Shown here piece after piece: positions 4,422 through 32,000 of a DNA stretch of 32,000 nucleotides; positions within the stretch are counted from its first letter, which is position 1, and each line of letters starts with the position of its first letter. The stretch spans positions 2,340,001 to 2,372,000 of the forward strand of contig NC_005070.1 of the NCBI RefSeq assembly GCF_000195975.1. The letters run 5' to 3'. A model generated the notes under the pieces. It made no database searches, had not been told where the DNA came from, and saw only the letters and a list, made by a program, of their open reading frames with translations. Source of the stretch: Parasynechococcus marenigrum WH 8102. GTDB taxonomy: Bacteria; Cyanobacteriota; Cyanobacteriia; PCC-6307; Cyanobiaceae. Both the position numbers and the translations under genes were made by a program.

Positions 4422-5173
4422 CCGTTCTCCTCCTCAGTGGTGCCGAGATAAACCTCAATGACCCGGGGATCCGCCTGCACTTGATCCATCGTTCCCTCAC
4501 ACAGAACGTGTCCCTGGTGCAACACCGTCACTGGACTGTCCAAACGACGGATGAATTCCATGTCGTGCTCAATCACCAGCACGGTGTGATTCCCCGCCAA
4601 CGACTTGAGCAGATCAGCGGTGAGATCCGTTTCTTCGTCGGTGAGGCCTGCCACCGGCTCATCCACCAGCAACAGGTCGGGATCCTGACCAACCAGCATC
4701 GCGATCTCGAGCCATTGCTTCTGTCCGTGGGACAGGGAACCCGCCGCCCAGTCGGCGCGGGATTGCAGGTTGACGATGCCCATCAGGTGATGAACGCGGT
4801 CTCGCTGCTCCCCATTCAGGCCCCCCAACAGCAATGACCAGGGCTGCTTGGGCCGAGTGACGGCCAAGGCCAGATTCTCCTGAACCGTGAGCTTCTCGAA
4901 CACACGCGGGCTCTGGAACTTGCGTCCAATCCCCAGACGGGCAATCCGATGTTCACGGGTGCCCACCAACGAGCGGCCCTTGAACATGACCTGTCCCTGA
5001 GTGGGAGCGGTCTTGCCGGTGATCACGTCCAGGAAGGTGGTTTTACCAGCCCCATTGGGACCGATCACCGCCCGCAGCTCTCCAGGGTGCAGCGACAGGT
5101 TGAGATCGCGCAGGGCCAGAAAACCATCAAAGCTGACGGTGATCTGACGCAACTCCAACAACGGCTGGGTCAT
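4418..5173 (-). CDS. urtD: urea ABC transporter ATP-binding protein UrtD (LivG-like)
   Basis: Walker A GPNGAGKTT and signature LSHGQKQ. It overlaps both neighbours by 4 nt. Confidence 0.9.
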   Translation of the reverse strand: MTQPLLELRQITVSFDGFLALRDLNLSLHPGELRAVIGPNGAGKTTFLDVITGKTAPTQGQVMFKGRSLVGTREHRIARLGIGRKFQSPRVFEKLTVQENLALAVTRPKQPWSLLLGGLNGEQRDRVHHLMGIVNLQSRADWAAGSLSHGQKQWLEIAMLVGQDPDLLLVDEPVAGLTDEETDLTADLLKSLAGNHTVLVIEHDMEFIRRLDSPVTVLHQGHVLCEGTMDQVQADPRVIEVYLGTTEEENG

Positions 5174-6297: not shown

Positions 6298-6300
6298 GAA

Positions 6301-7455: not shown

Positions 7456-7480
7456 GGACGTGTGAAACGAAGCGTTCAGT

Positions 7481-7518
7481 GAAACGACAAAAGGAGGAGC
7501 CCGTCACCGGGCTCCTCC
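7481..7518 (-). terminator. intrinsic-terminator-like hairpin between urtA and urtB (probable attenuator or 3' stabiliser)
   Basis: On the minus strand: GGAGGAGCCCG GTGA CGGGCTCCTCC, a perfect 11-bp stem, followed by TTTTGTCGTTTC. It begins 30 nt after the urtA stop, and its U-tract ends 25 nt before the urtB start codon. Confidence 0.6.
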
Positions 7519-7548
7519 CTGAAGAGCACTCAGGCTGTGATCAGAGGA

Positions 7549-8847
7549 TCAGAGCTTGTACTTCTCGCCCTTGGCGGCATCGGTCCAGTCGCAAGCGAAA
7601 CCCTTGGAGCTGGGCTCGAACTGGTTCCAGGCCTGAGGAGCCACAGGACCATCGGTGGATTCGAGGATCTCGAACTGACCATCCGCGGTGATCTGGCCGA
7701 TGCGCACGGTCTGGGACAGGTGGTGGTTGGGCATCACCTTCACAGGTCCCTGAGGCGCGTCGAACTCGATGCCGACCAGGACTTCACGCACCTTGTCGTC
7801 GTCGAAGCTGTTGGCCTTCTCGACAGCCTTCTTCCACAGGTAGACCATGTTGTAGGCCGACTCCTGAGGGTCAGCGACCTGGCGGTCGGCGCCGTACTTG
7901 GCCTTGAAGTCTGCGGCGAACTTTTTGGATGCCGGGGTGTCGATCGACATCATGTAGTTCCAAGCGCCGTAGTGGCCCTCAAGGAACTCAGAGCCGATGG
8001 TGCTGATCTCCTCTTCCGCGATGGAATAGCTCATCACGTAGTAGCCGTTATCGGGGGTGATGCCGGCGTCCTGGATCTGCTTGAAGAAGGCAACGTTCTG
8101 GTCACCATTCAGGGTGTTGATGATCACACCGCCGTCAGGCAGGGCCTTCTTGATCTTGGCGATGATCGGAGCAACCTCGGTGTTGCCCAGGGGCAGGTAG
8201 TCCTCACCGACCACTTCGCCACCCAGAGAGGCGAGCTGCTCCTTGGTGATGGTGTTGGAGGTGCGGGGGAAGACGTAGTCCGAACCAACCAGGAAGAAGG
8301 GCTTGCCAGCGGCAGGCGACTTCTCATACATGAACTTGGTGGCAGGCTCCGACTGCTGGTTCGGAGTGGCACCGGTGTAGAAGATGTTGTTGGAACACTC
8401 CTGACCCTCGTACTGAATCGGGTAGTAGAGGAAGGCGTTCTTCGACTCGTAGACAGGCAGCATCGCCTTGCGACTGGCGGAGGTCCAGCCACCGAAGACG
8501 ACGGGCACCTGGTCCTGGTCGATCAGCTTCTTGGACTTCTCAGCGAAGGTGGGCCAATCGGAAGCACCGTCCTCGACGATGTATTCGATCTTGTATTTCT
8601 TGCCGTCCACTTCGACACCACCAGCGGCGTTGATCTCATCGATCGCCATTTTCTCGGTGTCCACCAGGGTGGACTCGGAGATGGCCATGGTGCCGGTCAG
8701 CGAGTGCAGGATGCCGACGGTGACCTTGTCGTCGAAATCACTGGCAGGCGCAGCTGTTTCTTCACCGCCACCACAGGCGGTGACTGCCAAACCCAGAGAT
8801 GCAGCGGCGAGGCCTGCGAACAAACGCTTGGAGAGAGAGGAGCTCAT
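7549..8847 (-). CDS. urtA: urea ABC transporter substrate-binding lipoprotein UrtA
   Basis: LivJ-like periplasmic binding protein. Signal peptide with lipobox LAVTAC. ATG at 8847; the track ORF starts at an upstream GTG at 8868. Confidence 0.9.
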   Translation of the reverse strand: MSSSLSKRLFAGLAAASLGLAVTACGGGEETAAPASDFDDKVTVGILHSLTGTMAISESTLVDTEKMAIDEINAAGGVEVDGKKYKIEYIVEDGASDWPTFAEKSKKLIDQDQVPVVFGGWTSASRKAMLPVYESKNAFLYYPIQYEGQECSNNIFYTGATPNQQSEPATKFMYEKSPAAGKPFFLVGSDYVFPRTSNTITKEQLASLGGEVVGEDYLPLGNTEVAPIIAKIKKALPDGGVIINTLNGDQNVAFFKQIQDAGITPDNGYYVMSYSIAEEEISTIGSEFLEGHYGAWNYMMSIDTPASKKFAADFKAKYGADRQVADPQESAYNMVYLWKKAVEKANSFDDDKVREVLVGIEFDAPQGPVKVMPNHHLSQTVRIGQITADGQFEILESTDGPVAPQAWNQFEPSSKGFACDWTDAAKGEKYKL

Positions 8848-8891
8848 GAAATCCACAACACGGGACACGCGCCGTCACCGGCGGCATTGGG

Positions 8892-8934
8892 AAGGTAAAA
8901 AAGGGCCCCCCACCGCTTTGGTATCAACCGGAAC
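8892..8934 (-). promoter_or_regulatory. candidate NtcA-activated promoter of urtA
   Basis: The minus strand reads GTTCCGGTTGATAC (GT-N10-AC; GTA-N8-AAC on the plus strand, 8921..8934), then 23 nt, then TACCTT (TA-N3-T -10 box, 8897..8892). This gives a 5' UTR of roughly 40 nt before ATG 8847. Confidence 0.5.
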
Positions 8935-8960
8935 CGAATCACCACCTCTCCCGCACCGAA

Positions 8961-9566
8961 TCAAGCATTCGGTAGCTGTTGCAACACAAACTCCACCACC
9001 TGAACGAGGCCATCGCCGTTTTGGAGATTGGTGAAACACCACGGGCGTTCGCCCCGCATCCGCCGGGTGTCCGCCTCCATCACAGAGAGGTCCGCACCCA
9101 CGAGAGGTGCCAGGTCGATCTTGTTGATCACCAGCAAGTCGGATCGGGTGATGCCGGGCCCGCCCTTGCGGGGAATCTTGTCTCCAGCGGCGACATCAAT
9201 CACATAGATGCAGAGGTCCACCAACTCCGGACTGAAGCTGGCAGCCAGGTTGTCGCCCCCGCTTTCCACCATCACCAGATCGAGATCCGGAAACTGCCCC
9301 TCCAGATCGGCCACCGCCGCCCGGTTGATGGAGCAGTCCTCACGGATCGCCGTGTGCGGACAGCCGCCGGTTTCCACGCCGCGGATCCGTTCCGGCTCCA
9401 ACGCTCCAGCACGCGTCAAAAATTGCGCGTCCTCCTGGGTGTAGATGTCATTGGTGACAACAGCAAGCTGCAGCTGATCGCGCAGCCTCAGGCAAAGCGC
9501 CTCCACCAAAGCAGTCTTGCCGGATCCCACCGGACCGGCCACCCCAAGACGCAACTTGCTGCTCAT
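8961..9566 (-). CDS. ureG: urease accessory GTPase UreG
   Basis: P-loop [10 protein letters not shown] and motif [13 protein letters not shown]; 201 aa. Confidence 0.95.
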
Positions 9567-10234
9567 CAGCTCCGAAACAAGCGGGAATACAACTCAGCAT
9601 GGGTGAGCTGCGCCATGCCAGCCCCAACGCCGCTGGTCCACAACTGCCGGGGATCCCGTCGTTGCAACTGCTCGGCCTGCCCTTTGATCAACGGCAGCAA
9701 ACTGTGCTGCAGCAGCTGAGCCCGGCTTGGACCCAACGGCAACAGCCGCACCGCAGCACTGAGCTGATTGGCGACCCAGCCGTAGAGGTAGCCCTCCACC
9801 ATCTCGCTCTCCGCCACCTGCAAGGCCTGCGCTGCCCATGCCCAGGCCGCCGGCCAGCTCAACGCCACCTGCTCCGGCAAGGGGTGGCCCATCTCCGCGA
9901 GGAGGTTGAGCAACGAGCCACCCATCTGTCGTTGCTGAGCCCGCAGTTCAGCCGATTCACGACTGGCCAGCAGCCAGCCATCAAGATCCAGCACCCGGCG
10001 GCAGGCCGCGGTCTCTCCTGCTGACCAGGCCGCGAGTGCACCCAGCAGCGATGGCAACGCCGCCGCCTCCAATCGGATCGCCCCCCGCGACAGCTCCGCC
10101 TCCAACCAGGCCTGCAGTTGCTGCTCATCCCGGATCGTCTCCGACTGGATCAGAACTTCCAATCCCTCCGAATAACTGAAGCCACCAACCGGCAGAGCGG
10201 GGCTCACCAGCTGCAGCAGCGCCAGCGAACTCAT
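9566..10234 (-). CDS. ureF: urease accessory protein UreF
   Basis: 222-aa Leu/Ala-rich helical protein between ureE and ureG. ATGA overlap with ureE and 1-nt overlap with ureG. Confidence 0.85.
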
Positions 10235-10683
10235 CCGTGCTGATGGCCTGCGTAGGCGCCGCCTTCGGGCCGGAACGGTCGCTGACAGCGACTGAGCTGC
10301 AGACCACGGCTTTCCAGCATCGTCGCCAACACGGCGTCCTCCAGCAGATACAGATCCTGCTCATGCAACTCGAGGGCCACATGTCGGTTGCCCAGGTGAT
10401 AAGCCGCCTGCATCAACGCCAAGGCTGATGTCGCCCGTACCCGCAACAGCGCTTCGGTGGCTGCCGTCACTTCCACCCTGGCTGTACCAGCGGCATCACT
10501 GAGCTGATCCCCTGGCTGCAGGGCCCCGTCCCTTGGCAACTGCAACAGCACCTCACGGCCACAGTCCGTGCGGCGGCGGCCACGCACAACGCTGCGTTCA
10601 TCCGCCGTGAGCGGCAACAGCAGATCAGCTTGATCAGCCCTGGCGGCAAGCCGTTGATCCAGAACAAGAACAGCCTGCGTCAC
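10231..10683 (-). CDS. ureE: urease accessory (Ni chaperone) protein UreE
   Basis: 150 aa, first gene of ureEFG, with a GTG start. The C-terminus GHQHG carries few His residues. The call rests on position and size. Confidence 0.75.
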   Translation of the reverse strand: MTQAVLVLDQRLAARADQADLLLPLTADERSVVRGRRRTDCGREVLLQLPRDGALQPGDQLSDAAGTARVEVTAATEALLRVRATSALALMQAAYHLGNRHVALELHEQDLYLLEDAVLATMLESRGLQLSRCQRPFRPEGGAYAGHQHG

Positions 10684-10733
10684 CCGTGCTTCTCGTAGGA
10701 ACTCGAGCCTGCCCAGCCGTGGGCCAGCATTTG

Positions 10734-10747
10734 GTGATGGTTGTTAC
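10734..10747. promoter_or_regulatory. GTG-N8-TAC NtcA-like site in the divergent ureE/ureD gap
   Basis: GTGATGGTTGTTAC. I found no convincing TA-N3-T box at the proper spacing on either strand, so this is weak. Confidence 0.2.
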
Positions 10748-10781
10748 CGAGCGTCATCCCACGGCGAAGGAGCGTGCCCCC

Positions 10782-11717
10782 ATGCAATCCCTTGAGCCCT
10801 GGCACGGCCGCTGCCGGCTGCAGTTCCAAACCAACAACGGCAGCACCAAACACCAGGGGGGATGCACAGCTCCGTTCAAGCTGCTGCGGGCAGACGTGGG
10901 AGATCACGGCCGCTGTGAGCTGCCCCTTCTCCACACCGCCGGCGGCCTGGTGGGAGGCGATGAGCTCAGCATTGAGCTTGACCTCGGCCCTGACAGTCGC
11001 AGCCTGATCACCAGCGTGGCGGCCCAGAAGGTCTACGGCTCCGTGGGCCGCAGCCGTCTCCATCCCGACGGAGCCTGGACCCAGCAGTCCGTGACCTGCA
11101 GGTTGGAAGACACCAGTGATCTGGAGTGGCTGCCCCAGGAACTGGTGCTCTACGCGGACGCATTGTTCCAGCAGACCCTGACGGTGAGCCTGCCGGACAA
11201 CGCCTCATTTCTCAGCGCCGAGATCGTGCGGCTAGGGCGCACCGCCGCAGGGGAGCAGTTGAACCGCGGGCGCTGGCGCTCCTGCCTTGAGATTCAGCGC
11301 GACGGGGCGCACCAGCCCCGATGGGAGCTGGTGGACCGGCTGGAACTGGGCGACACCAGCCTCAACGACCCCCACGGACTTGGTGGTGCTCCCGTGTTCG
11401 GCTCACTGGTGTGGGCAGCACCAATGCCCTTGACCGGTGAACAGATCACCCTGCTGCTGGCGGGAGCCCGCCACGACCGTGACGGCCTTGAGGGAACCAT
11501 GCGCTGCAGCAGCCTTGATCAAGGGCTGATCGCCCGCTACGCCGGCCACTCCAGCCGCGACGCCCGCTTCTGGTTCAGCCGAATCTGGGCACGAACCCGC
11601 GCCTTACGGGGACTCTCCACGCCGCGCATTCCTCGGGTCTGGCCCCTGCAGGAACAGCCGTTGACGGGACAACCGTTCACTGCGAACGCTTCACCGACCG
11701 CTGCAACGACACACTGA
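10782..11717 (+). CDS. ureD: urease accessory protein UreD
   Basis: ORF 10686..11717. I prefer ATG 10782 (MQSLEPWHGRCRLQF), which is preceded by GAAGGAG and gives 311 aa, a typical UreD size. It lies immediately upstream of ureA. Confidence 0.8.
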   Translation: MQSLEPWHGRCRLQFQTNNGSTKHQGGCTAPFKLLRADVGDHGRCELPLLHTAGGLVGGDELSIELDLGPDSRSLITSVAAQKVYGSVGRSRLHPDGAWTQQSVTCRLEDTSDLEWLPQELVLYADALFQQTLTVSLPDNASFLSAEIVRLGRTAAGEQLNRGRWRSCLEIQRDGAHQPRWELVDRLELGDTSLNDPHGLGGAPVFGSLVWAAPMPLTGEQITLLLAGARHDRDGLEGTMRCSSLDQGLIARYAGHSSRDARFWFSRIWARTRALRGLSTPRIPRVWPLQEQPLTGQPFTANASPTAATTH

Positions 11718-11735
11718 ATGGGACCAAGGCTCTCC

Positions 11736-12038
11736 ATGCATCTCAGTCCCCAGGAAAAGGACAAGCTCCTGATCGTGACCGCGGCACTGCTGGCGGAGCG
11801 GCGCTTGAATCGTGGCCTCAAGCTCAACCACCCCGAAGCGGTGGCCTGGCTCGGCTTTCTGGTGCTGGAAGGCGCCCGTGACGGCAAGAGCGTGGCGGAG
11901 CTGATGCAAGAAGGCACCACCTGGCTGCGTCAGGACCAGGTGATGGAGGGGGTGCCCGAGCTCGTCCATGAGGTGCAGATCGAGGCCGTCTTCCCCGATG
12001 GCACCAAGCTCGTCACCCTGCACGACCCGATTCGCTGA
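11736..12038 (+). CDS. ureA: urease gamma subunit UreA
   Basis: [35 protein letters not shown] is a canonical UreA N-terminus. An alternative ATG lies at 11718, directly after the ureD stop. Confidence 0.92.
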
Positions 12039-12048
12039 GGCAGAACCC

Positions 12049-12369
12049 ATGGCACCTCTCATTCCAGGCGAACTGCTTCCCGAACCGGGTGAACTGGAGC
12101 TGAATGCAGGCCGACCCGTCACCACGCTGAGTGTTGCCAACAGCGGCGACCGGCCGGTGCAGGTGGGCTCCCATTTCCACTTCGCCGAAGCCAATGCCGC
12201 CCTGCAGTTCGACCGGACCGCAGCCCGCGGTCAACGGCTCGACATCCCCGCCGGCACCGCCATCCGCTTCGAACCCGGCGACAGCCGCGACGTGAACCTG
12301 ATTCCCTTTGCCGGCAATCGTCGGGTGATCGGTTTCAACGGCCAGATCAACGGACCCCTCGACGCCTGA
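12049..12369 (+). CDS. ureB: urease beta subunit UreB
   Basis: [22 protein letters not shown]...[13 protein letters not shown]; 106 aa from the ATG at 12049 within the longer track ORF. Confidence 0.92.
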
Positions 12370-12372
12370 CCC

Positions 12373-14082
12373 ATGCCCTACCGCATCTCCCGCCAGGCCT
12401 ACGCCGAGACCTACGGACCCACCACCGGCGACAGGGTTCGCCTGGCCGACACCGATCTGATCCTGGAAGTCGAGAAGGACTACACCGTCTACGGCGATGA
12501 GGTGAAGTTCGGCGGCGGCAAGGTGATTCGCGACGGCATGGGCCAATCCCAGACCCCTCGAACCGAGGGAGCCGTCGACACGGTGATCACCAATGCTCTG
12601 ATCCTCGACTGGTGGGGCATCGTCAAAGCCGATGTCGGCCTCAAGGACGGCCGGATCGTGGGCATCGGCAAAGCCGGTAACCCCGACACCCAGCAAGGGG
12701 TGACGATCGTGGTGGGTCCCGGCACAGAAGCCATCGCCGGGGAGGGCCACATCCTCACGGCCGGTGGCATCGACACCCACATCCACTTCATCTGCCCCCA
12801 GCAGATCGAAACAGCCCTAGCCAGCGGGGTCACCACCCTGATGGGCGGCGGCACTGGACCAGCCACCGGCACCAATGCCACCACCTGCACCCCTGGGGCG
12901 TTTCACATCGGCCGGATGCTCCAGGCCGCTGAAGGCCTGCCGGTGAATCTGGGCTTCTTCGGCAAAGGCAACGCCAGCACCCCGGAAGCCCTGGAGGAAC
13001 AGGTGCGCGCCGGTGCCTGCGGCCTGAAGCTGCATGAAGACTGGGGCACCACGCCGGCCACGATCGATGCCTGCCTGTCGGTGGCCGATCGGATGGATGT
13101 GCAGGTGTGCATCCACACCGACACCCTGAACGAAGCCGGCTTCGTGGAAGACACGATCGCCGCTATCAAGGGACGCACCATTCACACCTTCCACACCGAA
13201 GGTGCCGGCGGTGGTCATGCCCCGGACATCATCAAGATCTGCGGTGAGGCCAACGTGCTGCCCAGCAGCACCAACCCCACCCGGCCATATACCCGCAACA
13301 CGCTCGAGGAGCACCTCGACATGCTGATGGTGTGCCACCACCTCGACCCGAAGATCCCCGAGGACGTGGCCTTCGCCGAATCACGGATCCGGCGCGAAAC
13401 GATCGCCGCCGAAGACATCCTTCATGACCTCGGCGCCTTCTCGATCATCGCCAGCGACTCCCAGGCCATGGGCCGCGTGGGCGAGGTGATCACCCGCACC
13501 TTCCAGACCGCCCACAAGATGAAGGTGCAGCGCGGTGCATTGCCGGAAGACTCCGCACGCAACGACAACCACCGGCTGACGCGCTACATCGCCAAGGTGA
13601 CGATCAACCCGGCGTTGGCCCACGGCATCAGCAGCGAAGTGGGGTCGATCGAAACCGGCAAGCTCGCGGATCTGGTGCTGTGGAAACCGGGCTTCTTCGG
13701 CATTCGCCCGGAACTGGTGGTGAAGGGGGGTTCGATCGTGTGGGCCCAGATGGGCGATGCCAACGCCTCGATTCCCACCCCCGGCCCGGTGCACGGCAGG
13801 CCGATGTTCGGCGCCTTCGGCAAAGCCCTCGCCCCCAGTTGCCTCACCTTCGTGAGCGAAGCAGCGATGGACAACGACATCCAATCAAAACTCAGGCTTG
13901 ACCGAACCTGCATGGCGGTGAAGGAGACCCGCAGCGTGGGCAAGAGCGCCCTCAAGCTGAATGCAGCGCTACCCAAGGTGAGCGTGGACCCGCAGACCTA
14001 TGAGGTGTTCGCCGACGGTGAACTGCTCACCTGCGAGCCCGCCGAGGTGCTGCCCCTCGCCCAGCGCTATCTGTTGCTGTAA
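12373..14082 (+). CDS. ureC: urease alpha (catalytic) subunit UreC
   Basis: 569 aa with [44 protein letters not shown] and MVCHHL motifs. Confidence 0.97.
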
Positions 14083-21733: not shown

Positions 21734-23206
21734 ATGTTCACCGAGTACCGACCAACCCATGGGTACGACGAATATTTTTGCCGTGAACAGTCCGCTCCCC
21801 GCGCTGATCTGGAGCCGCTGCTGTCCTCCCTTGGAGCCATGGGGCTGGCGGAACTGAATCGCAGTCATGCATCAGCGAGCAATCTGTTGCGACGTCTTGG
21901 CGCCACCTTCCGACTCAACGGATCAGGTCTGCATGGCGGAGAGCGGATCCTTCCCTTCGATCCACTGCCAAGACTCATTCACCGTCAGGAATGGTCCGTT
22001 CTGGAGCGCGGATTGGTGCAACGCCTGGAGGCCATTGATCAGTTTCTGGCGGACGTTTATGGACCCCAACGGATCCTCAATGATGGCGTGATCCCCCGTG
22101 AGGATGTGGAGAGCTCCCAGGGCTGGCGGCCCCAGATGCAGGACATCGCCGTGCCGCTCAACCGCTGGTGCCACATCTCAGGTCTGGATCTGATCCGCGA
22201 TGGCGACGGCACCTGGAGGGTTCTGGAGGACAACCTGCGCTGCCCCTCTGGCGTGGCTTATTTCCTTGAGAACCGTCGGGTGATGAAGCGGTTGTTCCCC
22301 AGCCTGTTCCAAGGGCGAACCGTGCAGCCGATCGACGATTACCCCTCCCATCTCTTGCGCACGTTGCAGGATCTGGCTCCTTGGAGTGATGCCCCACGGG
22401 TGGTGCTGCTCACCCCCGGCGTGTTCAACAGCGCCTACTTCGAGCACAGCTATCTGGCCCAGCAGATGGGCATTGCCCTGGTGGAAGGCCGCGATCTGAT
22501 CTGTGAAGACGGACGCGTCTGGATGCGCAGCACGGCCGGTCGGGAACCTGTGGATGTGATCTACCGGCGCATCGATGACGATTTCCTCGATCCGAACGTG
22601 TTCCGACGCGATTCGATGCTCGGTGTCCCCGGCCTCATCGATGCCATGCGCTCCGGTCGGGTGGCCATCGCCAACGCCCCTGGGAGCGGTGTCGCTGACG
22701 ACAAGCTGATCTATGCCTACGTGCCGGCCATGATCCGTTACTACCTCAACGAAGAACCGATCATCGACAACGTCCCCACCTATCTCTGCTCAAGGGACGA
22801 CGACCGCCGTTATGTGCTCGAACATCTCAACGAACTGGTAGTGAAATCAGTCGCCGAGGCAGGCGGCTACGGAATGTTGATCGGGCCCCATGCCAGTTCT
22901 GAGGAGATTGAGAGCTTCGCGGTGAAGATCAAGGCTCACCCGCGCAATTTCATCGCCCAGCCCACCCTGCAGTTATCCACAGTTCCATCCCTGAGCGAAG
23001 GGGAGCTGTACCCCTGCCATGTGGATCTGCGCCCCTACGTGCTCCGGGGTAAAAGCGACTGGGTCAGCCCCGGCGGCTTGACTCGTGTAGCCCTGAAACG
23101 CGGTTCCCTTGTGGTGAACTCCTCCCAGGGGGGCGGCTGCAAGGACACCTGGGTGGTCAGCGACAGTGCCGTAACGGCTGGCAATCAGGAGCTCGTGCCG
23201 TGCTGA
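21734..23206 (+). CDS. circularly permuted type-2 ATP-grasp protein (DUF404/DUF407 family)
   Basis: MFTEYRPTHGYDEYF...ERILPFDPLPRLIHRQEWSVLERGLVQRLEAIDQFLADVYG...VLEDNLRCPSGVAYFLENRRVMKRLFP matches the family pattern as I recall it. An alternative ATG lies at 21710. Confidence 0.85.
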   Translation: MFTEYRPTHGYDEYFCREQSAPRADLEPLLSSLGAMGLAELNRSHASASNLLRRLGATFRLNGSGLHGGERILPFDPLPRLIHRQEWSVLERGLVQRLEAIDQFLADVYGPQRILNDGVIPREDVESSQGWRPQMQDIAVPLNRWCHISGLDLIRDGDGTWRVLEDNLRCPSGVAYFLENRRVMKRLFPSLFQGRTVQPIDDYPSHLLRTLQDLAPWSDAPRVVLLTPGVFNSAYFEHSYLAQQMGIALVEGRDLICEDGRVWMRSTAGREPVDVIYRRIDDDFLDPNVFRRDSMLGVPGLIDAMRSGRVAIANAPGSGVADDKLIYAYVPAMIRYYLNEEPIIDNVPTYLCSRDDDRRYVLEHLNELVVKSVAEAGGYGMLIGPHASSEEIESFAVKIKAHPRNFIAQPTLQLSTVPSLSEGELYPCHVDLRPYVLRGKSDWVSPGGLTRVALKRGSLVVNSSQGGGCKDTWVVSDSAVTAGNQELVPC

Positions 23207-24183
23207 GCCGTGTGGCCGATTCGCTGTACTGGATCAACCGGTATGTCGAGCGGGCCGAAAACATCTCCCGGTTTCTGGAAGTAAGCGAAGCCATGGCCCT
23301 GGATTGCCCCCCCGGCAGCGCTGAGCCCTGGCTTCCCCTGGTGGATGCCAATGGGGACCGCAAGCGGTTTGACGAGGCCTATCCCCAATGCACACCACGG
23401 GACGTCGTCAGCTTTCTGCTGCTGGATCGCGACAACCCCAACAGCATCGTGAGTTGCATCGCCAACGCCCGTGAGAACGCTCGCCAAATCCGCGATGTGA
23501 TCACCACGGAAATGTGGGAGCAGCTCAATGACCTCTATTGGAACGTTCAAGACGGTGAGGCGCTCTGGCAGGAGCCGGATCAAGAACAGCTGCGCAGCAT
23601 CCGACGCGGATGTCAGCTCTTCTACGGCATCACGGACGTGACCCTCAGTCGTGATCAAGCCTGGCTGTTCAGCCAGCTGGGACGGCTGATCGAACGGGCA
23701 GACAAAACCTCCCGCATCCTCGATGTGAAGTACTTCCTTCTGTTGCCAACGCCAACGGAGGTGGGCGGCGTTCTCGATGAATTGCAGTGGATCTCACTGC
23801 TTCGAACAGCTGGGGCTTATCAGATGTATCGCCAGAGCGTGCAGCAGGCGATCACACCAGCATCAGTTGCACGATTCCTGCTCCTGGATCCGATCTTTCC
23901 CCGTTCGGTCCGCTTCTGCCTGCAACAGATCAACGAGACGCTGCAACGCATTCAGAGGAAACCCCACACCGGCCCACCGGATGACCTGGAATGCCTGGGC
24001 GGTCAGTTGCTCGCCCAATGGAGCTACGTCCGCATCGACGCTCTGATCGAACGCGGACTGCATGAGGCCATCGATCAACTGCAAAGCGATCTGAACCGAC
24101 TGCATGGCCTCATCCACCGTTGCTACTTCACCACCACCGACCTGGGCTCCATCCCCACCGAGCCGTCATGCGCGCTGAGCTGA
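23200..24183 (+). CDS. alpha-E domain protein (DUF403)
   Basis: MLSRVADSLYWINRYVERAENISRFLEV is the hallmark alpha-E N-terminus. The GTG start overlaps the ATP-grasp stop (GTGCTGA). Confidence 0.85.
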   Translation: MLSRVADSLYWINRYVERAENISRFLEVSEAMALDCPPGSAEPWLPLVDANGDRKRFDEAYPQCTPRDVVSFLLLDRDNPNSIVSCIANARENARQIRDVITTEMWEQLNDLYWNVQDGEALWQEPDQEQLRSIRRGCQLFYGITDVTLSRDQAWLFSQLGRLIERADKTSRILDVKYFLLLPTPTEVGGVLDELQWISLLRTAGAYQMYRQSVQQAITPASVARFLLLDPIFPRSVRFCLQQINETLQRIQRKPHTGPPDDLECLGGQLLAQWSYVRIDALIERGLHEAIDQLQSDLNRLHGLIHRCYFTTTDLGSIPTEPSCALS

Positions 24184-25067
24184 ACCATCGCCTCACATAT
24201 CGCTACGAGGCTCCCGTGCAGCTCGGAGAACACCGCCTCTGTCTGCGGCCCCGGGCCCAGGGCCATCAACGGCTGATCCACCACACACTGCAGATCACAC
24301 CGGAACCCTTCCACAGCCATGAGCTGTTGGCCGCCAGTGGCGATGCGATCGAGCGCGTGCGCTTCCGAGGCAGCACCGATTTGCTGCAGCTCGAAGCCAG
24401 GAGCTTGGTGGAAACCCGGCAGGCCGCACCGCTGCTCACATGTTTCAACGGACTTGAACCCTCGCTTCCCTATCCGCGCGGTCTGCTGAACCACGACCTA
24501 CTGGGGGCTCTGGAAGGGTGGTTGCCCAACGGTCAACACGACCCCTCAGCTGTGGAACTGGCGCAGGACGCTCTGATGGGAAGCAATCAGCAGGTGCTGC
24601 CTTTTCTCCAGCAACTGATGGAGATGATCCAGGACCGGGTCAAGTACACCCAGCGCCATGTGGGCCCAGCCTGGCCAGCGGGCAGGACCTTGCGGGAGCG
24701 TGTGGGCTCATGCCGTGATCTGGCGATGCTGATGATGGAGTGCTGCCGCAGCGTGGGGCTGCCGGCTCGGTTTGTGAGTGGTTACCACCTGGCCGAACCA
24801 GCACCTGAGACCTACGACCTTCACGCCTGGACCGAGATTTATCTGCCGGGTGCCGGCTGGCGCGGTTTTGATCCAAGTGCAGGTGGTGAAATTACCTCGC
24901 GCTACATCGTGCTTGTCAGTTCCTCCAAACCGGATCTCAGTGCAGCGGTTCAGGGAAGCTTTACAGGACCCCCAGCAACGACAAGCCACCTGAGCTGGAC
25001 CATTGACGCGGATGTCGAACCCAGACCGGTCGCTTCGTCCAGCCAAACCATGGTTCAGGCCGCCTGA
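24168..25067 (+). CDS. transglutaminase-like cysteine peptidase family protein (N-terminal Bact_transglu_N-type region plus core)
   Basis: ATG 24168 (MRAELNHRLTYRYEAPVQLGEHRLCLRPR) overlaps the alpha-E gene by 16 nt. A Cys-His-Asp triad is visible: GSCRDLA, LHAWTEIYLPGAGW, GFDPS. Confidence 0.85.
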   Translation: MRAELNHRLTYRYEAPVQLGEHRLCLRPRAQGHQRLIHHTLQITPEPFHSHELLAASGDAIERVRFRGSTDLLQLEARSLVETRQAAPLLTCFNGLEPSLPYPRGLLNHDLLGALEGWLPNGQHDPSAVELAQDALMGSNQQVLPFLQQLMEMIQDRVKYTQRHVGPAWPAGRTLRERVGSCRDLAMLMMECCRSVGLPARFVSGYHLAEPAPETYDLHAWTEIYLPGAGWRGFDPSAGGEITSRYIVLVSSSKPDLSAAVQGSFTGPPATTSHLSWTIDADVEPRPVASSSQTMVQAA

Positions 25068-25546
25068 AGCAGCGGCTCGACACCATGGAGACGGGGAGGC
25101 GGAGCCTGAATCGAGGTGACCGCTAACAGCGCTGGAATGCGGGCACTGTTGTAGACGCGGAATTCCTGCACCAACGACACCCCCTCCTCCCGGACCGCCT
25201 GGTTGAGAACCACCGAACCGTCGGGATCAGATACCGAGCGGTGAAACGTTCCGGGTGGAATGCGCAGGATGTCGCCGCCACTGTCGAGACGCACGATGTG
25301 GAACGGCTGATCCCAGGCCAGGTTGACGAGGTAGAACGTTCGCCCACCACTGGCGGCCAGAAGATTGTCTTCCTGGTGTGGATGGAGATAGAACTGCCAG
25401 GCCCCGCTGTCGGGATCGTTGGGTGGACTGGTGGCCGGGCCACTGTGGATCACCAGATCGCGGGCATTGGAGGTGTCCACCGTAACGTCGAAAAAACGCA
25501 CCGCTGGTGTGTCGCGGAAGCGTTCATAGGCCAGCAGTTCAAACAT
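25055..25546 (-). CDS. cupin-fold protein of unknown function
   Basis: GDILRIPPGTFH fits cupin motif 2 (G-x5-P-x-G-x2-H) and YLHPHQED is motif-1-like. I prefer ATG 25546 (MFELLAYERF); the track ORF starts at TTG 25630. Confidence 0.5.
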   Translation of the reverse strand: MFELLAYERFRDTPAVRFFDVTVDTSNARDLVIHSGPATSPPNDPDSGAWQFYLHPHQEDNLLAASGGRTFYLVNLAWDQPFHIVRLDSGGDILRIPPGTFHRSVSDPDGSVVLNQAVREEGVSLVQEFRVYNSARIPALLAVTSIQAPPPRLHGVEPLLQAA

Positions 25547-25626
25547 CTCCAGGGGCGTGACAAAGCCCAAGCTCTGACATGGTTGTACTGGGGTTATCGA
25601 AGCAAAACGGTGACGGTGGCAACGGT

Positions 25627-26667
25627 TCAACCACCGAGATAAGCCATTTCGGCATGGGGCATGGAACCGGTCGTCTGCTGGCGCTCATCGCTGTAACGGT
25701 CGTCACGGCGCCGCCAGAGATCAGCAACCAGCCGCAGCAATTCCGCCTCACAGTGCAGAGCGGGTTTCAGATCAGTCCCCACCGACGCGAAGAGGCAGCG
25801 GAACGCCTGTCCATCAGCTGTGACCCGCAGTCGATTGCAATCCCCGCAGAACGGCTCGCTGATCGAGGCGATCACGCCGAGATGTCCACCACCATCGACG
25901 TAACGCCAACGCTGAGCTGTTCCGCCGGTGGGTCGGCCAACTGCCTGAAGCGGCCACCGTGCCCTGATCCGCGTCACCATCTCCGCCGCTGACAGCACCT
26001 GATCCAGCCTCCACTGATTGCGGTTGCCCACATCCATGTACTCAATCAGGCGCAATTCCACACCTTGATCACGAGCCAGATCCGCCAGAGGCAGAAGCTG
26101 ATCCTCATTCACCCCCCGTTGGATCACGGCATTGAGCTTGAGTTCCCCCGCCAAAGGGTCAAAACCAGCGGAACGAGCCGAAGCCAATCCACCGAGTACC
26201 TTCCGCGCCAATGAATCCCCCGCTGTGGCAGTTGGTCGTCCTGCCATCCGCGCCACCACAGCCCCATCCACGCCATCAAGGCTCACGGTGATGCGATCCA
26301 AACCGGCCTGCCTGAGATCGCAAGCTCGCTGGTCGCTCAGCAAGGTCCCATTGGTGGTGAGGGCCACCTGCTGAAGACCCTGCAGTGGATCGCCAGGCGT
26401 TGCCCGTGCTGCCGCGATTGCCTGCAACAGGGGGAGAAGCCGAGCACTGAGCAACGGCTCGCCACCGGTAAGCCGCAGGCTGTGGATCCCCAGCCGGCAG
26501 GCAACACGAATCAGGCGCAGCTGCTGCTCCAGGCTGAGCAAATCCGGCGGATCCTCAAGATCCGGACAGCAGTAAGGACAGGCCAGGTTGCAGCGGGCCG
26601 TCAACGACAACCGAAGCACTCTCAACGGCCGCGACCGCTGATCGACAAGCGCTGAAGCTGGTGTCAT
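25627..26667 (-). CDS. moaA: GTP 3',8-cyclase MoaA (radical SAM, molybdenum cofactor biosynthesis)
   Basis: CNLACPYC (C-x3-C-x2-C) near the N-terminus and a C-terminal FCGDCNRLR cluster. ATG 26667 forms an ATGA overlap with the mobA stop. The longer track ORF would run into mobA. Confidence 0.9.
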   Translation of the reverse strand: MTPASALVDQRSRPLRVLRLSLTARCNLACPYCCPDLEDPPDLLSLEQQLRLIRVACRLGIHSLRLTGGEPLLSARLLPLLQAIAAARATPGDPLQGLQQVALTTNGTLLSDQRACDLRQAGLDRITVSLDGVDGAVVARMAGRPTATAGDSLARKVLGGLASARSAGFDPLAGELKLNAVIQRGVNEDQLLPLADLARDQGVELRLIEYMDVGNRNQWRLDQVLSAAEMVTRIRARWPLQAVGRPTGGTAQRWRYVDGGGHLGVIASISEPFCGDCNRLRVTADGQAFRCLFASVGTDLKPALHCEAELLRLVADLWRRRDDRYSDERQQTTGSMPHAEMAYLGG

Positions 26668-27239
26668 GCCATCAACGCTGCCAGATCCTCCGGACGGTTG
26701 GCATTCAGCAAGGCCTGAGACGGCAGCACCACCGGCCGATGGGGCACCGACGCCAACCAAGCCATCCAACGCCGTTCACCGCGGGCCAACTGCTCAGCGA
26801 GCCTGGTTTGAAACGGTTCTCCCGTTGGAATCACCGCCAGCAATGGCTGCAGGCGCTGCCCATCCTGGGCAACGGCGATCTGATCAGGCTTCTCATACCA
26901 GGAGTTGATCAACTGCTGAAGAACAGCAGCACTGAGCCGAGGCATGTCCACGGGCAGCACCAGCAGAGCTTCAGCAGGGGTACCAGGCAACACGCGGCCG
27001 AGAGCCTGAAGTGGCCCCTGCCAGGGCGGTGGCTCCTGCACAACGGTGACGCCGCGACGATCAGCCAGTTGATCCCCATGGGTTGGATGACGGCTGACCA
27101 CCTGCAACGGCAAACCGAGAAGCCTCACCTGATCCACCAGGGCGGTCAGCCAGAGCCCTCCACTGGGGTGCGGCAGCAGAGCTTTGTCCTGACCCATGCG
27201 CCGGCTCTCTCCACCGCTGAACAAGCAGGCACACAACAT
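26664..27239 (-). CDS. mobA: molybdenum cofactor guanylyltransferase MobA
   Basis: LFSGGESRRMGQDKALL N-terminal motif; about 191 aa; ATG at 27239. Confidence 0.8.
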   Translation of the reverse strand: MLCACLFSGGESRRMGQDKALLPHPSGGLWLTALVDQVRLLGLPLQVVSRHPTHGDQLADRRGVTVVQEPPPWQGPLQALGRVLPGTPAEALLVLPVDMPRLSAAVLQQLINSWYEKPDQIAVAQDGQRLQPLLAVIPTGEPFQTRLAEQLARGERRWMAWLASVPHRPVVLPSQALLNANRPEDLAALMA

Positions 27240-27391
27240 CAACGCGAAATGTCTCCAGCCATCATTGATTCCATCTCAGCAAAACCCATTCCCCGCGGTG
27301 ACAACCGCTACCAAGCAAAAACTGAACGCGGATGCTGATCAATCGGATAAGCCCAAGCGATGTTCCTCTCATCACACAAACCCTTCCATTG

Positions 27392-27405
27392 GTAGCAATT
27401 CCAAC
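27392..27405 (+). promoter_or_regulatory. GTA-N8-AAC NtcA-like site upstream of nrtP
   Basis: GTAGCAATTCCAAC. Only a weak -10 (TTAACT) follows after 22 nt. The site lies about 118 nt upstream of ATG 27523. Confidence 0.35.
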
Positions 27406-27522
27406 GAAGTCGTTCCCTGTTGATTGATTAACTGCCCGAGTTAACGGATTTTTTTCGACCGTTTCGCCACCCACGGGCACCCTTTCGTTTTGAAGCCCGC
27501 GGTTTCAACATTTCTCTTCTCA

Positions 27523-29063
27523 ATGCTTGGCGACCTCTGGTCGTTCCAGGGCAGGTACCGAACCCTTCACCTCACCTGGATCGCCTTCTTCCTGACCTTT
27601 GTGGTCTGGTTCAACCTGGCCCCTCTGGCCACCACCGTGAAAGCGGACCTGGGACTGACCGTTGGTCAGATCCGCACAGTGGCCATCTGCAACGTGGCCC
27701 TCACCATTCCTGCGCGCGTGCTGATCGGCATGCTCCTCGACAAGTTCGGACCCCGGATCACCTACTCGTCGATCCTGGTGTTCTCAGCGATTCCCTGCCT
27801 GCTGTTTGCCTCCGCTCAGAGCTTCAACCAGCTGGTGGTGGCCCGTCTGCTGCTCTCCATTGTTGGCGCCGGCTTCGTGATCGGCATCCGCATGGTGGCC
27901 GAATGGTTCCCGCCTAAGGAAATCGGCCTGGCTGAAGGCATCTACGGCGGCTGGGGCAACTTCGGCTCCGCCTTCTCCGCCCTCACGATGGTTGCCCTCG
28001 CTGGCTTCCTCTCCTTCTCCGGCGGCTTCGAACTGCCCACCGGCACTGTTCTGAACTGGCGTGGTGCCATCTCCCTCACCGGCATCGTCTCCGCCGTTTA
28101 CGGCCTCTTCTATTTCTTCAACGTCACCGACACCCCCCCGGCAAGACCTATCAGCGCCCTGAGAAAACCGCAGGCCTGGAGGTCACCTCCATGCGCGACT
28201 TCTGGGGTCTGCTCGGCATGAACGTGCCCTTCGCAGCCATCCTCTGCGTGCTCTGCTGGCGTCTCGGCAAGGTGGGCTTCCTGACTCCGTCCACCTACCC
28301 ACTGGCTCTCGGGGCTGTTGCCGTCTGGTTTGCTTTCCAGACCTGGGGAATCATTCGCACCAACCGCGACCTGATCCTCGGCAACAAGGTCTATCCCAAG
28401 GAAGACCGCTACGAGTTCCGCCAGGTAGCGATCCTCGAGCTCACCTACATCGTGAACTTCGGCTCCGAACTGGCCGTGGTTTCGATGCTGCCCACCTTCT
28501 TTGAAACCACCTTCGATCTGCCGAAGGCCACCGCCGGAATCCTGGCCTCCTGCTTTGCTTTCGTGAACCTGGTTGCCCGCCCTGCCGGTGGTCTGATCTC
28601 CGACAGCGTCGGCAGCCGCAAGAACACCATGGGCTTCCTCACCGCCGGTCTCGGCGTGGGCTACCTGGTGATGAGCATGATCAAGCCCGGCACCTTTACC
28701 GGCACCACCGGCATCGCCGTTGCCGTGGTGATCACCATGCTCGCCTCCTTCTTCGTGCAGTCCGGTGAAGGCGCCACCTTCGCGCTGGTGCCCCTGGTCA
28801 AGCGTCGCGTCACCGGTCAGGTGGCCGGCCTGGTGGGTGCCTACGGCAACGTTGGTGCTGTGACCTACCTGACCATCTTCAGCCTTCTGCCGATGTGGAT
28901 GGGCGGCGGCGGCGAACCCACCCCCGAGGTGATCGCGGCTTCCAACAGCGCCTTCTTCCAGATCCTGGGCGTGGCCGGTCTGATCGTGGCCTTCTTCTGC
29001 TTCTTCTTCCTCAAGGAGCCCAAGGGATCTTTCGCGGAACTGCATGAAGGCGAAACCGCCTGA
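27523..29063 (+). pseudogene. nrtP: nitrate/nitrite MFS permease NrtP (NapA), frame broken by a 1-nt deficit in a C7 run (true pseudogene, split gene or homopolymer sequencing error)
   Basis: Two track ORFs (27490..28221 and 28191..29063) are the N- and C-halves of one MFS transporter. Frame 1 reads ...NVTDTPPARPISAL... and stops at 28221. Reading the other frame back from 28191 gives PPGKTYQRPEKTAGLEVTSMRDFWGLLG. The frames meet at CCCCCCC 28133..28139. One extra C would give a continuous 513-aa protein. Confidence 0.8.
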
Positions 29064-29065
29064 TT

Positions 29066-29098
29066 GTGATGTCCAGCAGCGCAGTGGCGCTGCATCAC
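29066..29098 (+). other. bulged hairpin directly after the nrtP stop
   Basis: GTGATG(tccag)CAGCGC agtg GCGCTGCATCAC forms a 12-bp stem with a 5-nt bulge. Confidence 0.3.
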
Positions 29099-29099
29099 G

Positions 29100-29132
29100 G
29101 CCCGGAGCTTCGGCTTCGGGCTTTTCTCTTTC
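29100..29132 (+). terminator. intrinsic-terminator-like hairpin between nrtP and narB
   Basis: GCCCGGAGC TTCG GCTTCGGGC forms a 9-bp stem (one G-U pair) with a UUCG loop, followed by TTTTCTCTTTC. It ends 10 nt before the narB ATG. Confidence 0.6.
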
Positions 29133-29142
29133 GTAAGCCCTG

Positions 29143-31374
29143 ATGTCTGACGGCCCTCGCAGTGTTCGCAGCCAGTGCCCCTACTGCGGTGTGGGCTGCG
29201 GTCTTGAGCTGCTGCCTCCGGCCGTGAAGGGTCAAGCCGTGAAGCGGGATGCAGAAGGCAACCCGATGTGGACCGCCCGCGGCGACCGCGAACACCCCTC
29301 CAGCCTTGGCCAGGTGTGCATCAAGGGGGCCACCGTCGGCGAAACCCTGGCCAGGGGACGACTGCGACAACCGTTGTTCCGCAGCAAGCTCACGGACGCC
29401 TTTGCGCCGATCAGCTGGGACGACGCCCTCGACAAAATCACCGGACAGATCAAGGCGAGCTTGGCCCGGCGCGGCAATGCCGATGGCATCGCCATGTACG
29501 GCTCAGGGCAGTTCCACACCGAGGATTACTACCTGGCCCAGAAACTGCTGAAAGGCGCCTTGGGCACCAACAATTTCGATGCCAACTCGCGGCTGTGCAT
29601 GAGCTCAGCGGTGGCCGGCTACACCCGCAGCCTGGGTTCCGATGGCCCGCCCTGCAGCTACGAGGATCTGGATCACTGCACGGTGGCCTTTCTAATCGGC
29701 ACCAACACCGCCGAATGCCACCCGGTGCTGTTCCAGCGGCTGCTGAAGCGGAAACGCAAGAACCCGGGCAGCGTCAAGATCGTGGTGGTGGACCCACGCC
29801 GCACCGACACCGCAAAGGCGGCTGATATTCACTTGCCGATTGCTCCGGGCAGCGACCTGGCCCTGCTACACGGCATCGCCCACCTGGTGCTGCGGGACAA
29901 CGGCCAGGATCCAGCCTTCATCGACAACCACACCGAGAACTACGACGCGTTCTTCGACGTGGCCGCCCGCTGGACCCCCAGACGGGTGGCCCTGTTCTGC
30001 AACATCCCCGAGAAACGTCTGCGGGACGTGGCGGCTCTGTTTCACCGGCGCCAAAAGGTGCTGAGTTTGTGGTCGATGGGGGTGAACCAGCGCCGTGAAG
30101 GAACGGCCGTGGTGCAAGGCCTGATCAATCTGCATCTGCTCACCGGCCAGATCGGCAACGAAGGAGCGGGCCCGTTTTCCCTGACCGGCCAACCCAATGC
30201 CATGGGCGGCCGCGAAGCCGGGGGGCTCGCCCACCTGCTGCCGGGCTATCGGTTGGTGGCCAACCCTGAGCACCGCGCCGAGGTGGAACAGGCCTGGAAG
30301 CTCCCGGCTGGCCAAATCGCCGCCAAGCCGGGGCTTGCAGCGTGGCAGCAGGTGGAAGCGATGGAACGCGGTGACCTTGATCTCTGGTGGGTAGCCGCCA
30401 CCAACCCGCTGGTGAGCATGCCGGACCTGGATCGGGTCAAACAGGCCATGGGCAACTGCCCGTTGGTGGTGGTGAGCGAGGCCTACGCCGACTCAGAAAC
30501 GTCCCACTACGCCCACCTGCTGCTGCCAGCCGCCCAATGGAGTGAGAAGGCCGGCGCCATGACCAATTCCGAGCGGCGTGTGACCTTCTGTCCTGCCTAC
30601 CGCCTCCGCTTCGGGGAAAGCCGTCCGGACTGGGAAGTGTTCGCGGACGTGGGTCGCCGGTTGGGTTACACCGAGCAGTTCCGCTTCGACTCGGCTGCCG
30701 AGGTGTACGCCGAATTCACCCGACTCACCCAGGGACGCCTCTGTGACGTCAGTGGCCTCAGCCACGAACTGCTTGAGCAAGCGGGGCCTCAGCAATGGCC
30801 TTATCCCATGGGCAGCATCCCCAGCACAGCAGCCAAACGCCTCTACGAAAACCATCTGTTCGCGACCCCCAGCGGCCGGGCGCGTTTCAGCACCGACCAG
30901 CCTTTAGGCCTGGCAGAACCCCCCTGCGACACCTACCCATTGGTGCTGACCGTCGGTCGATACCTGGGGCAGTGGCACACGATGACCCGGACCGGGAAAG
31001 TGGAGCGGCTGATGAAACAGCACCCTGAGCCATTGCTGGAGATTCATCCAAGCGATGCCCAGGAACTACAACTGCGCAACGGCGAGCTGGCTGCGATCAG
31101 CTCGCGCCGCGGCCACCTCACAGCCACGGTGAAGGTGACCGATCGCATCCGCTGCGGAACTGTGTTCCTGCCGATGCACTGGGGATTCACCCAGGAGAAG
31201 GCTTGCGAAGCCAACACGCTGATGCATGACGATGCCTGCCCGGTGTCCAAGCAACCGGAACTGAAAGCCTGCGCTGTGATCGTGGCGCCGGCGGTCTCCG
31301 TGGTGAAACCGGTGGAGCAGGAGAAAGGACGCCTGGAGGCACTGCGGCGCCTGCTCACCCCAGCACTTCGCTGA
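29143..31374 (+). CDS. narB: assimilatory ferredoxin-dependent nitrate reductase NarB (molybdopterin oxidoreductase)
   Basis: 743 aa. N-terminal Fe-S motif CPYCGVGCGL, a molybdopterin oxidoreductase-like body, and position directly after nrtP. Confidence 0.93.
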   Translation: MSDGPRSVRSQCPYCGVGCGLELLPPAVKGQAVKRDAEGNPMWTARGDREHPSSLGQVCIKGATVGETLARGRLRQPLFRSKLTDAFAPISWDDALDKITGQIKASLARRGNADGIAMYGSGQFHTEDYYLAQKLLKGALGTNNFDANSRLCMSSAVAGYTRSLGSDGPPCSYEDLDHCTVAFLIGTNTAECHPVLFQRLLKRKRKNPGSVKIVVVDPRRTDTAKAADIHLPIAPGSDLALLHGIAHLVLRDNGQDPAFIDNHTENYDAFFDVAARWTPRRVALFCNIPEKRLRDVAALFHRRQKVLSLWSMGVNQRREGTAVVQGLINLHLLTGQIGNEGAGPFSLTGQPNAMGGREAGGLAHLLPGYRLVANPEHRAEVEQAWKLPAGQIAAKPGLAAWQQVEAMERGDLDLWWVAATNPLVSMPDLDRVKQAMGNCPLVVVSEAYADSETSHYAHLLLPAAQWSEKAGAMTNSERRVTFCPAYRLRFGESRPDWEVFADVGRRLGYTEQFRFDSAAEVYAEFTRLTQGRLCDVSGLSHELLEQAGPQQWPYPMGSIPSTAAKRLYENHLFATPSGRARFSTDQPLGLAEPPCDTYPLVLTVGRYLGQWHTMTRTGKVERLMKQHPEPLLEIHPSDAQELQLRNGELAAISSRRGHLTATVKVTDRIRCGTVFLPMHWGFTQEKACEANTLMHDDACPVSKQPELKACAVIVAPAVSVVKPVEQEKGRLEALRRLLTPALR

Positions 31375-31825
31375 AGGCGGCATCCAGGTTGTGGTGGTCA
31401 TGACCCGGCCGCACCAGCTTGCAGAGAGCGAAACGTTCCAGCTCAGTGACGTGGGCCCATTGCTCAGGCGTCAACTCCACACCCCGGGCCACCGCAGCGC
31501 GGTGAATCTCTGCCGGTAAAACGGACTGCTGCTGCCAGGCTGCGCCCACAGCCGGCGGCAAATCCTTCACCACACCATCAGCCATCCCCTCTGTGAGATC
31601 CCGCAGGTACTGCCGGAGTTGATCGAGCGCATTTGCAGCGTCCGACCAATCCACCAGCTCTTGCCGCTGGTTCTGCGTGAGTGCCAACCAGTGGCTGAGC
31701 TTGAGCTTCACACCGGCCAGATCCAACTTGCGGCGCACGCAAAGGGGAATGCAACGCCAGGTACCGATGAAATCCTGCTCGAAAGCAAAACAATGGCTGG
31801 ATGAATCAGAGGTGCTGGCCATCAA
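31355..31825 (-). CDS. nitrate reductase-associated protein (NarM-like)
   Basis: 156 aa. FAFEQDFIGTWRCIPLCVRRKLDLAGVKLKLSHWLAL resembles, from memory, the cyanobacterial nitrate-reductase-associated family. It is convergent with narB and overlaps it by 20 nt. Confidence 0.55.
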   Translation of the reverse strand: MMASTSDSSSHCFAFEQDFIGTWRCIPLCVRRKLDLAGVKLKLSHWLALTQNQRQELVDWSDAANALDQLRQYLRDLTEGMADGVVKDLPPAVGAAWQQQSVLPAEIHRAAVARGVELTPEQWAHVTELERFALCKLVRPGHDHHNLDAAFSEVLG

Positions 31826-32000
31826 CGAAGCCCGCGAACGGTGTCAATGATGACAACGACCAATCAGGAAATCAGAGATGTTCATCTCGTTACACATCCA
31901 CGTCCGTGCGATTCGCCCTCTCCCTCGGAATGTTGCTTGGCATGTCCCACGGTTGGGTGACGGCTGAGGGCCAAGCAAACGACAATTCAGACCTTCTTGA

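Follow-up and report, generated by a model that had tools for sequence, protein, structure and literature searches.

Does Parasynechococcus marenigrum WH 8102, the marine cyanobacterium also named Synechococcus sp. WH 8102, carry two half-length nitrate-transporter genes, as its reference genome records, or a single permease gene whose deposited sequence is one base short? The split itself is already known: the annotation has carried it from the publication of the genome onwards, and it has been interpreted as gene fission. In the passages of PMC4017328 that deal with the locus, and that cite Su et al. (2006), SYNW2462 and SYNW2463 of WH8102 are described as two fragments of what is one protein in other strains, and both are reported to be down-regulated by ammonium. 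SYNW2463-4 have also been termed putative nitrate transporters (PMC3744912), and main-text passages of a proteome paper (PMC6716455) make no mention of the permease. As represented in those passages of PMC4017328, the earlier literature takes the pair, two ammonium-co-regulated genes that correspond to one composite protein elsewhere, as an instance of gene fission/fusion in support of a functional association, whereas the present evidence makes the same locus a one-base matter that is absent from the other read-outs of the strain. We analysed 32,000 nucleotides of contig NC_005070.1 (positions 2,340,001 to 2,372,000 of the forward strand; hereafter the window). The locus is very probably an ordinary nrtP (napA) gene, with eight C residues (C8) in the organism and one 513-aa transporter as its product, and the deposited reference is one C short.

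The nrtP locus and its neighbours

The nrtP gene for a nitrate/nitrite permease occupies 27523..29063 of the window on the + strand and contains, by direct reading of the sequence, a run of seven C residues (C7) at 28133..28139, with A at 28132 and G at 28140 as its flanks. The frame that opens at ATG 27523 encodes a typical MFS N-half down to ...FFNVTDTPP and leaves the homologous frame thereafter; the 206 genuine residues are followed by 26 aberrant ones (ARPISALRKPQAWRSPPCATSGVCSA) and by TGA at 28219-28221, for a total of 232 aa. This N-half ORF (27523..28221, +) was published as SYNW2462; the ORF lister starts it at TTG 27490, which gives 243 aa instead of the 232 aa counted from ATG 27523. 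Peptides of the aberrant tail include PISALR and SPPCATSGVCSA. The −1 frame is open across the tract, and its first start codon, ATG 28191, lies 30 nt ahead of the end of the N-half stop codon; the C-half ORF that begins at this internal methionine (28191..29063, +; published as SYNW2463) encodes 290 aa. Between the tract and this ATG lie 17 loop codons (GKTYQRPEKTAGLEVTS; 28140..28190, +) that are read only in the restored frame. Insertion of a single C yields a 513-aa protein with the junction ...NVTDTPPGKTYQRPEKTAGLEVTSMRDFW... / ...TDTPPGKTYQRPEKTAGLEVTSMRDFW..., and the peptides TYQRPEK and TAGLEVTSMR are obtainable from the restored frame alone. A Shine-Dalgarno-like GGAGG (28179..28183, +) is located 7 nt upstream of ATG 28191, within conserved coding sequence (L-E-V). 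The segment GGAGGTCACCTCC (28179-28191), which ends on the A of this ATG, is a perfect 5-bp inverted repeat with a 3-nt loop; it forms a small hairpin in the predicted fold, and the surrounding region is no more structured than shuffled sequences.

The restored protein scores 368.8 bits against TIGR00886 (NarK family nitrate/nitrite MFS transporter; cut-off 311.7), with a match that spans protein residues 13-446 and profile positions 1-368. By passing this profile it resembles NrtP/NapA, the NNP-family (NarK-type) permease of marine cyanobacteria (nrtP of WH 8103 and PCC 7002), and the window gene differs from these in recorded homopolymer length only, C7 instead of C8. PF07690 (MFS_1) matches the two halves separately, with 97.6 bits for the N-half and 46.1 bits for the C-half. 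In a simple hydropathy scan, six hydrophobic segments precede residue 206, the site of the break, and at least six more follow from about residue 227; the frame break therefore falls within the central loop between the two halves. A sequence search of solved structures gave no NarK-type match (the best was DgoT, E = 1.6e-6), so that the helix boundaries rest on hydropathy. A C7 run is not in itself statistically remarkable; C/G heptamers are scarce in the window, with two seen and 12.6 +/- 4.6 expected, a roughly six-fold deficit relative to shuffled sequence. The non-random features lie elsewhere: each half is clearly that of an MFS protein, and a single added base recreates a protein present letter for letter in public assemblies. 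The sole other C7 run in the window, at 23307-23313, lies inside an ORF with an Alpha-E domain (23200..24183, PF04168) and is read through in frame.

The gene narB, for an assimilatory nitrate reductase, begins 79 nt downstream of nrtP (29143..31374, +) and is intact, with 743 aa and the Pfam domains Molybdop_Fe4S4, Molybdopterin and Molydop_binding; members of its protein cluster are named nitrate reductase by NCBI. Upstream of nrtP, on the opposite strand, are uninterrupted genes for a moaA-like radical-SAM GTP 3',8-cyclase (25627..26769, −; TIGR02666 278.9 bits, just below the cut-off of 284) and a mobA-like molybdenum cofactor guanylyltransferase (26664..27242, −; TIGR02665 84.5 bits, below the cut-off, with PF12804 found on orthologues). 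The moaA-like orthologue on contig L086, which is considered below, is called as 346 aa. A conserved nitrate-reductase-associated protein is encoded, likewise without interruption, at 31355..31825 (−; PF09655, 155.5 bits). The position of NrtP/NapA upstream of narB and adjoining moaA/mobA is shared by all related loci, and the gene order is identical in L086-L089 and L213-L216. The initial annotation, which had been made from the letters of the sequence, is borne out by these data in its whole description of the site: the C7 run, the departure of the N-half from its frame and its subsequent stop, the C-half open in the other frame with its own ATG, the full-length protein restored by one extra C, the break in the central loop, and the intact state of narB, moaA and mobA.

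Elsewhere in the window, an ORF at 25055-25630 (−) has no Pfam match; all related loci examined place it between a transglutaminase-like gene and moaA, and it is called there as 163 aa; another ORF without a Pfam match is found at 1603-2880 (+). The region 3711-14082 contains genes for a urea ABC transporter (binding protein, two permeases and ATPases) and for urease (ureD, ureC and accessory genes), all of them uninterrupted. The whole 32-kb window lacks a perfect NtcA box (GTAN8TAC).

The C tract in other assemblies and in relatives

In the public protein collection, the exact product of the truncated N-half is found on one contig only, the 2,434,428-bp NCBI reference. The exact restored 513-aa protein (P0031) occurs on about 89 contigs from Logan and ENA (105 index blocks; longest contig 965 kb), many of which, judging by sample names, apparently derive from one laboratory's WH 8102 stock, so that the independent stocks may be as few as one. 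Residue 100 of P0031 is Ser, the corresponding residue being Asp in WH 8103, RS9915, RS9902 and A15-28, and the contigs that bear P0031 are therefore WH 8102-type DNA. One of them, a 453,487-bp contig (L086; SRR3471269 / PRJNA320136), aligns over 7,479 bp to positions 24523..32000 of the window with no mismatch and a single gap, which is the eighth C. The metagenomes of PRJNA320136 were sequenced on the Illumina HiSeq 3000 (PMC6010575), and the project is also cited by a later paper of the same group, in which axenic WH8102 was grown in F/2 for isotope-labelled substrates (PMC8521717). The single uninterrupted reading frame that is absent from the window (C7) is present in this identical DNA (C8), which in effect supplies the re-sequencing result, eight C residues, that the initial annotation had equated with an ordinary nrtP. 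The exact NarB of WH 8102 is found in 104 index blocks, and a 513-aa nrtP lies upstream of it in both places that are shown with genes.

A partial metagenome contig (L001) also reads C8, and the exact C-half product is found on metagenome contigs that end near the C tract. In several public metagenome contigs with the C-half, no more than about 60 nt separate the contig end from the tract. Untrimmed Nextera adapter (…AGATGTGTATAAGAGACAG) is joined directly to nrtP at the start of three contigs (L001 1-45, L002 1-81 and L003 1-37).

The comparison with closely related strains that had been proposed gives C8 in WH 8103 and C7 in RS9915, RS9902 and A15-28. In WH 8103, the sister strain, 13 of 5,358 bases in this region depart from the window; its gene is intact, its NrtP is one residue apart from the restored WH 8102 protein, and its C8 is seen in two assemblies, the published genome and the Logan assembly of raw run ERR588636. 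Across the genome collection, nrtP is in a single frame in all 80 species representatives, which range from marine Synechococcus and Prochlorococcus to Leptolyngbya and Xenococcus. The motif PPGK is invariant among them and DTPPGK is present in 78 of the 80; the unbroken C8 spelling is kept in one (L007), and in the others the run is interrupted by synonymous changes. Two picocyanobacterial nrtP contigs (L015 and L016; 93-94% identical to the query) are placed in metagenome-assembled genomes labelled Flavobacteriales and Salipiger bermudensis, probably through a binning error.

When codons are compared between the C7 strains in the restored frame, synonymous changes predominate (28:8, 58:7 and 67:14), and within the 17 loop codons, which a split gene would leave untranslated, all six of the changes in RS9915 and RS9902 are synonymous. 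No second lesion was found within nrtP. Because the differences are mostly synonymous, including those in the loop codons, selection has acted on one continuous frame of 513 aa for as long as these lineages have been diverging, and C7 is recent or artefactual in each of them and not an old split.

The physiology of the strain agrees with a working permease. WH8102 grows with 800 µM nitrate as the sole nitrogen source, in place of ammonium (PMC10470740), and has also been cultured in F/2 medium (PMC8521717). Growth on sub-millimolar nitrate would not be expected of a strain that lacked its only known nitrate permease.

Independent assemblies of identical DNA read C8, all relatives among the species representatives carry one frame, and the strain grows on nitrate. 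In the organism, the Thr-Pro-Pro-Gly codons would read ACC CCC CCC GGC, which makes a run of eight C residues, and the gene would encode one MFS transporter of 513 aa and 6+6 helices in the usual moaA-mobA / nrtP-narB cluster. The loss of one C from the deposit would have turned this gene, on paper, into the pair SYNW2462 and SYNW2463. That loss is probably private to the reference record, and we infer that it arose either through an error of base calling or finishing at a G+C-rich homopolymer or as a one-base slippage deletion in the clonal subculture that was sequenced; the two causes appear about equally probable.

C7 and other frameshifts in further strains

The aberrant tail is not confined to the reference. 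The sequence ...TDTPPAR[PR]ISALRK... ends annotated 'nitrate transporter' proteins of A15-28, RS9915 and RS9902 and one metagenome protein, and C7 is shared by the loci of RS9915 (L087), RS9902 (L088) and A15-28 (L089), at about 3110-3116 in each, and by a MEGAHIT metagenome contig (L210) at about 1067-1073. Within nrtP, these backgrounds differ from WH 8102 at 8 nt (A15-28), 37 nt (RS9915), 71 nt (RS9902) and about 80 nt (the metagenome contig). The restored proteins of RS9915, RS9902 and A15-28 have no exact match in the public collection. A scan of metagenome DNA with the unspecific pattern GTCACCGACAN{6,10}GGCAAGAC gave two nrtP sequences among the matches listed (at least 120 loci), both of them intact.

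The genome project for RS9915, RS9902 and A15-28 used Illumina paired-end and mate-pair libraries or 250-bp shotgun reads, and the isolates passed through three rounds of cloning on agarose before sequencing (PMC7522525), which would fix any minority variant. Since consensus errors at an 8-base run are uncommon with Illumina-type reads, C7 in these genomes may be a real recurrent allele and not an error. RS9902 and RS9915 drew down nitrate in PCR-S11 with 2 mM NaNO3 once ammonium was low (PMC12366368). Nitrate was thus consumed despite the C7 in both genomes, and one of four explanations must hold: the assemblies are wrong, the stocks are mixed, nitrate has another route of entry at millimolar concentration, or the C7 gene is functional. 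The tract may itself be slippage-prone, given C7 in three isolate genomes and one metagenome contig, because C7 recurs in the assemblies of other strains while RS9915 and RS9902 consume nitrate.

Two further loci carry other lesions. A15-60 (L212, CP047933.1; 515-1532 and 2501-4055) carries a frameshift of another kind in nrtP, a complex +1 change some 12 codons past the PP motif, and its moaA is split into pieces of 194 aa and 141 aa; nitrate assimilation in this strain looks as if it may be undergoing genuine decay. In L211 (ERZ28548094, with a name ending in _pilon), a C4-to-C3 change at the same Pro-Pro codons breaks nrtP, and moaA (273 aa) and narB (726 aa) are shorter than usual; the break is probably a residual indel error of a polished, probably long-read, assembly. 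The clustering of frameshifts in the central loop (protein cluster 1) was considered as a sign of selection for a split transporter and was rejected, as the cluster gathers N-terminal fragments of similar length and so reflects ascertainment bias. The same idea is undercut by the two loci themselves, L211 being a Pilon-polished contig with several truncated genes and A15-60 having a broken moaA as well.

Other readings of the tract and what the locus means

Homopolymer contingency loci of Haemophilus and Neisseria vary by slipped-strand mispairing. The nrtP tract resembles them in being a coding poly-C run whose length is off by one between read-outs, with a switch of frame, and differs in being short and not conserved among relatives. 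It is quite improbable that C8 is a real slippage hot spot through which some clade II/III Synechococcus reversibly turn nitrate uptake on and off, with the reference as an OFF line. Such a switch would account for C7 and C8 on otherwise identical WH 8102 DNA (the reference and L086), although either may be a sequencing error, and for C7 on four further backgrounds that are 8 to about 80 nt from WH 8102 within nrtP; triple agarose cloning would have fixed a minority variant in the C7 isolates (PMC7522525), and the undamaged state of the remaining gene and cluster is consistent with recent or reversible events. However, unbroken C8 is kept in one of the 80 species representatives, the scarcity of C/G heptamers (2 against about 12.6 expected) resembles avoidance and not maintenance, and RS9902 and RS9915 take up nitrate in culture (PMC12366368). 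A broader form of the idea is possible, if on the unlikely side: the C8 run of some clade II/III marine Synechococcus may be truly unstable, with C7 arising repeatedly, in the WH 8102 reference, A15-28, RS9915, RS9902 and one seawater contig, and persisting in ammonium-containing cultures; the tract would then be a reversible switch, or C7 cells would still take in nitrate, either by −1 recoding at a low level or by assembling the two halves. An unstable tract with residual C7 function would, if true, explain the use of nitrate by RS9902 and RS9915.

Function of a C7 gene as it stands could come from −1 frameshifting on C_CCC_CCG (28134..28140), from RNA polymerase slippage that adds a C, or from halves that are made separately, the C-half from ATG 28191, and then assemble. 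The zero-frame heptamer C CCC CCG does fit X XXY YYZ, and a −1 slip on it gives exactly ...TPPGK...; no downstream stimulatory structure was seen, the fold of 28125..28235 having a predicted energy of −34.9 kcal/mol against a shuffle mean of −33.7 (z = −0.35). Bibi and Kaback are said to have found in 1990 that the halves of LacY, expressed as two pieces, complement each other. The nrtP break likewise lies in the central loop between the predicted six-helix bundles, but no conserved independent translation signals were found there: the GGAGG ahead of ATG 28191, which might serve the C-half, is coding sequence and reads GGAAG in RS9915 and RS9902. Strains with C7 genomes do use nitrate (PMC10470740, PMC12366368), as a functional C7 gene would allow. 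Against this, the two-frame arrangement is found in none of the 80 species representatives, WH 8103 and the WH 8102-identical DNA are single-frame as well, and recoding is superfluous since identical DNA with C8 exists; we regard function of the C7 form as very unlikely. That nrtP is a fixed pseudogene, marking a recent loss of high-affinity nitrate uptake with narB and the cofactor genes undecayed so far, is scarcely credible. It follows the reference sequence as deposited and has a parallel in the seemingly real decay of A15-60, but it is contradicted by C8 in independent assemblies of the same DNA, by growth of WH 8102 on nitrate as the sole nitrogen source (PMC10470740), by the continued ammonium regulation of both halves reported in the passages of PMC4017328 noted above and by the absence of a second lesion from the gene.

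The initial annotation had left four explanations side by side, and they have fared differently. A homopolymer error, to which a variant private to one subculture must now be added, is favoured by C8 in identical DNA and in WH 8103; a fixed loss of uptake is disfavoured by growth on nitrate (PMC10470740), and a conserved split transporter by the single frame in 80 of 80 representatives. The idea of slippage is kept alive by the recurrence of C7 in assemblies of other strains. Neither a fixed loss of nitrate uptake, nor a conserved split transporter, nor a conserved programmed frameshift applies to nrtP of WH 8102.

The reading that we prefer, one ordinary nrtP gene with a reference record one C short, matters mainly for annotation. 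The reference genome of WH 8102 is in wide use as a model, and the split nrtP in it has been accepted as recorded, both as an example of gene fission and, in array and proteome studies, as two 'putative nitrate transporters'. Merging the two halves into a single gene of 513 aa sets databases, proteomic search spaces and metabolic models right. With four isolate genomes showing the one-base deficit, calls of the presence or absence of nitrate uptake in picocyanobacteria can err at this tract. Should the variants prove real, an ecologically central trait may be eroding in cultures kept long-term with ammonium.
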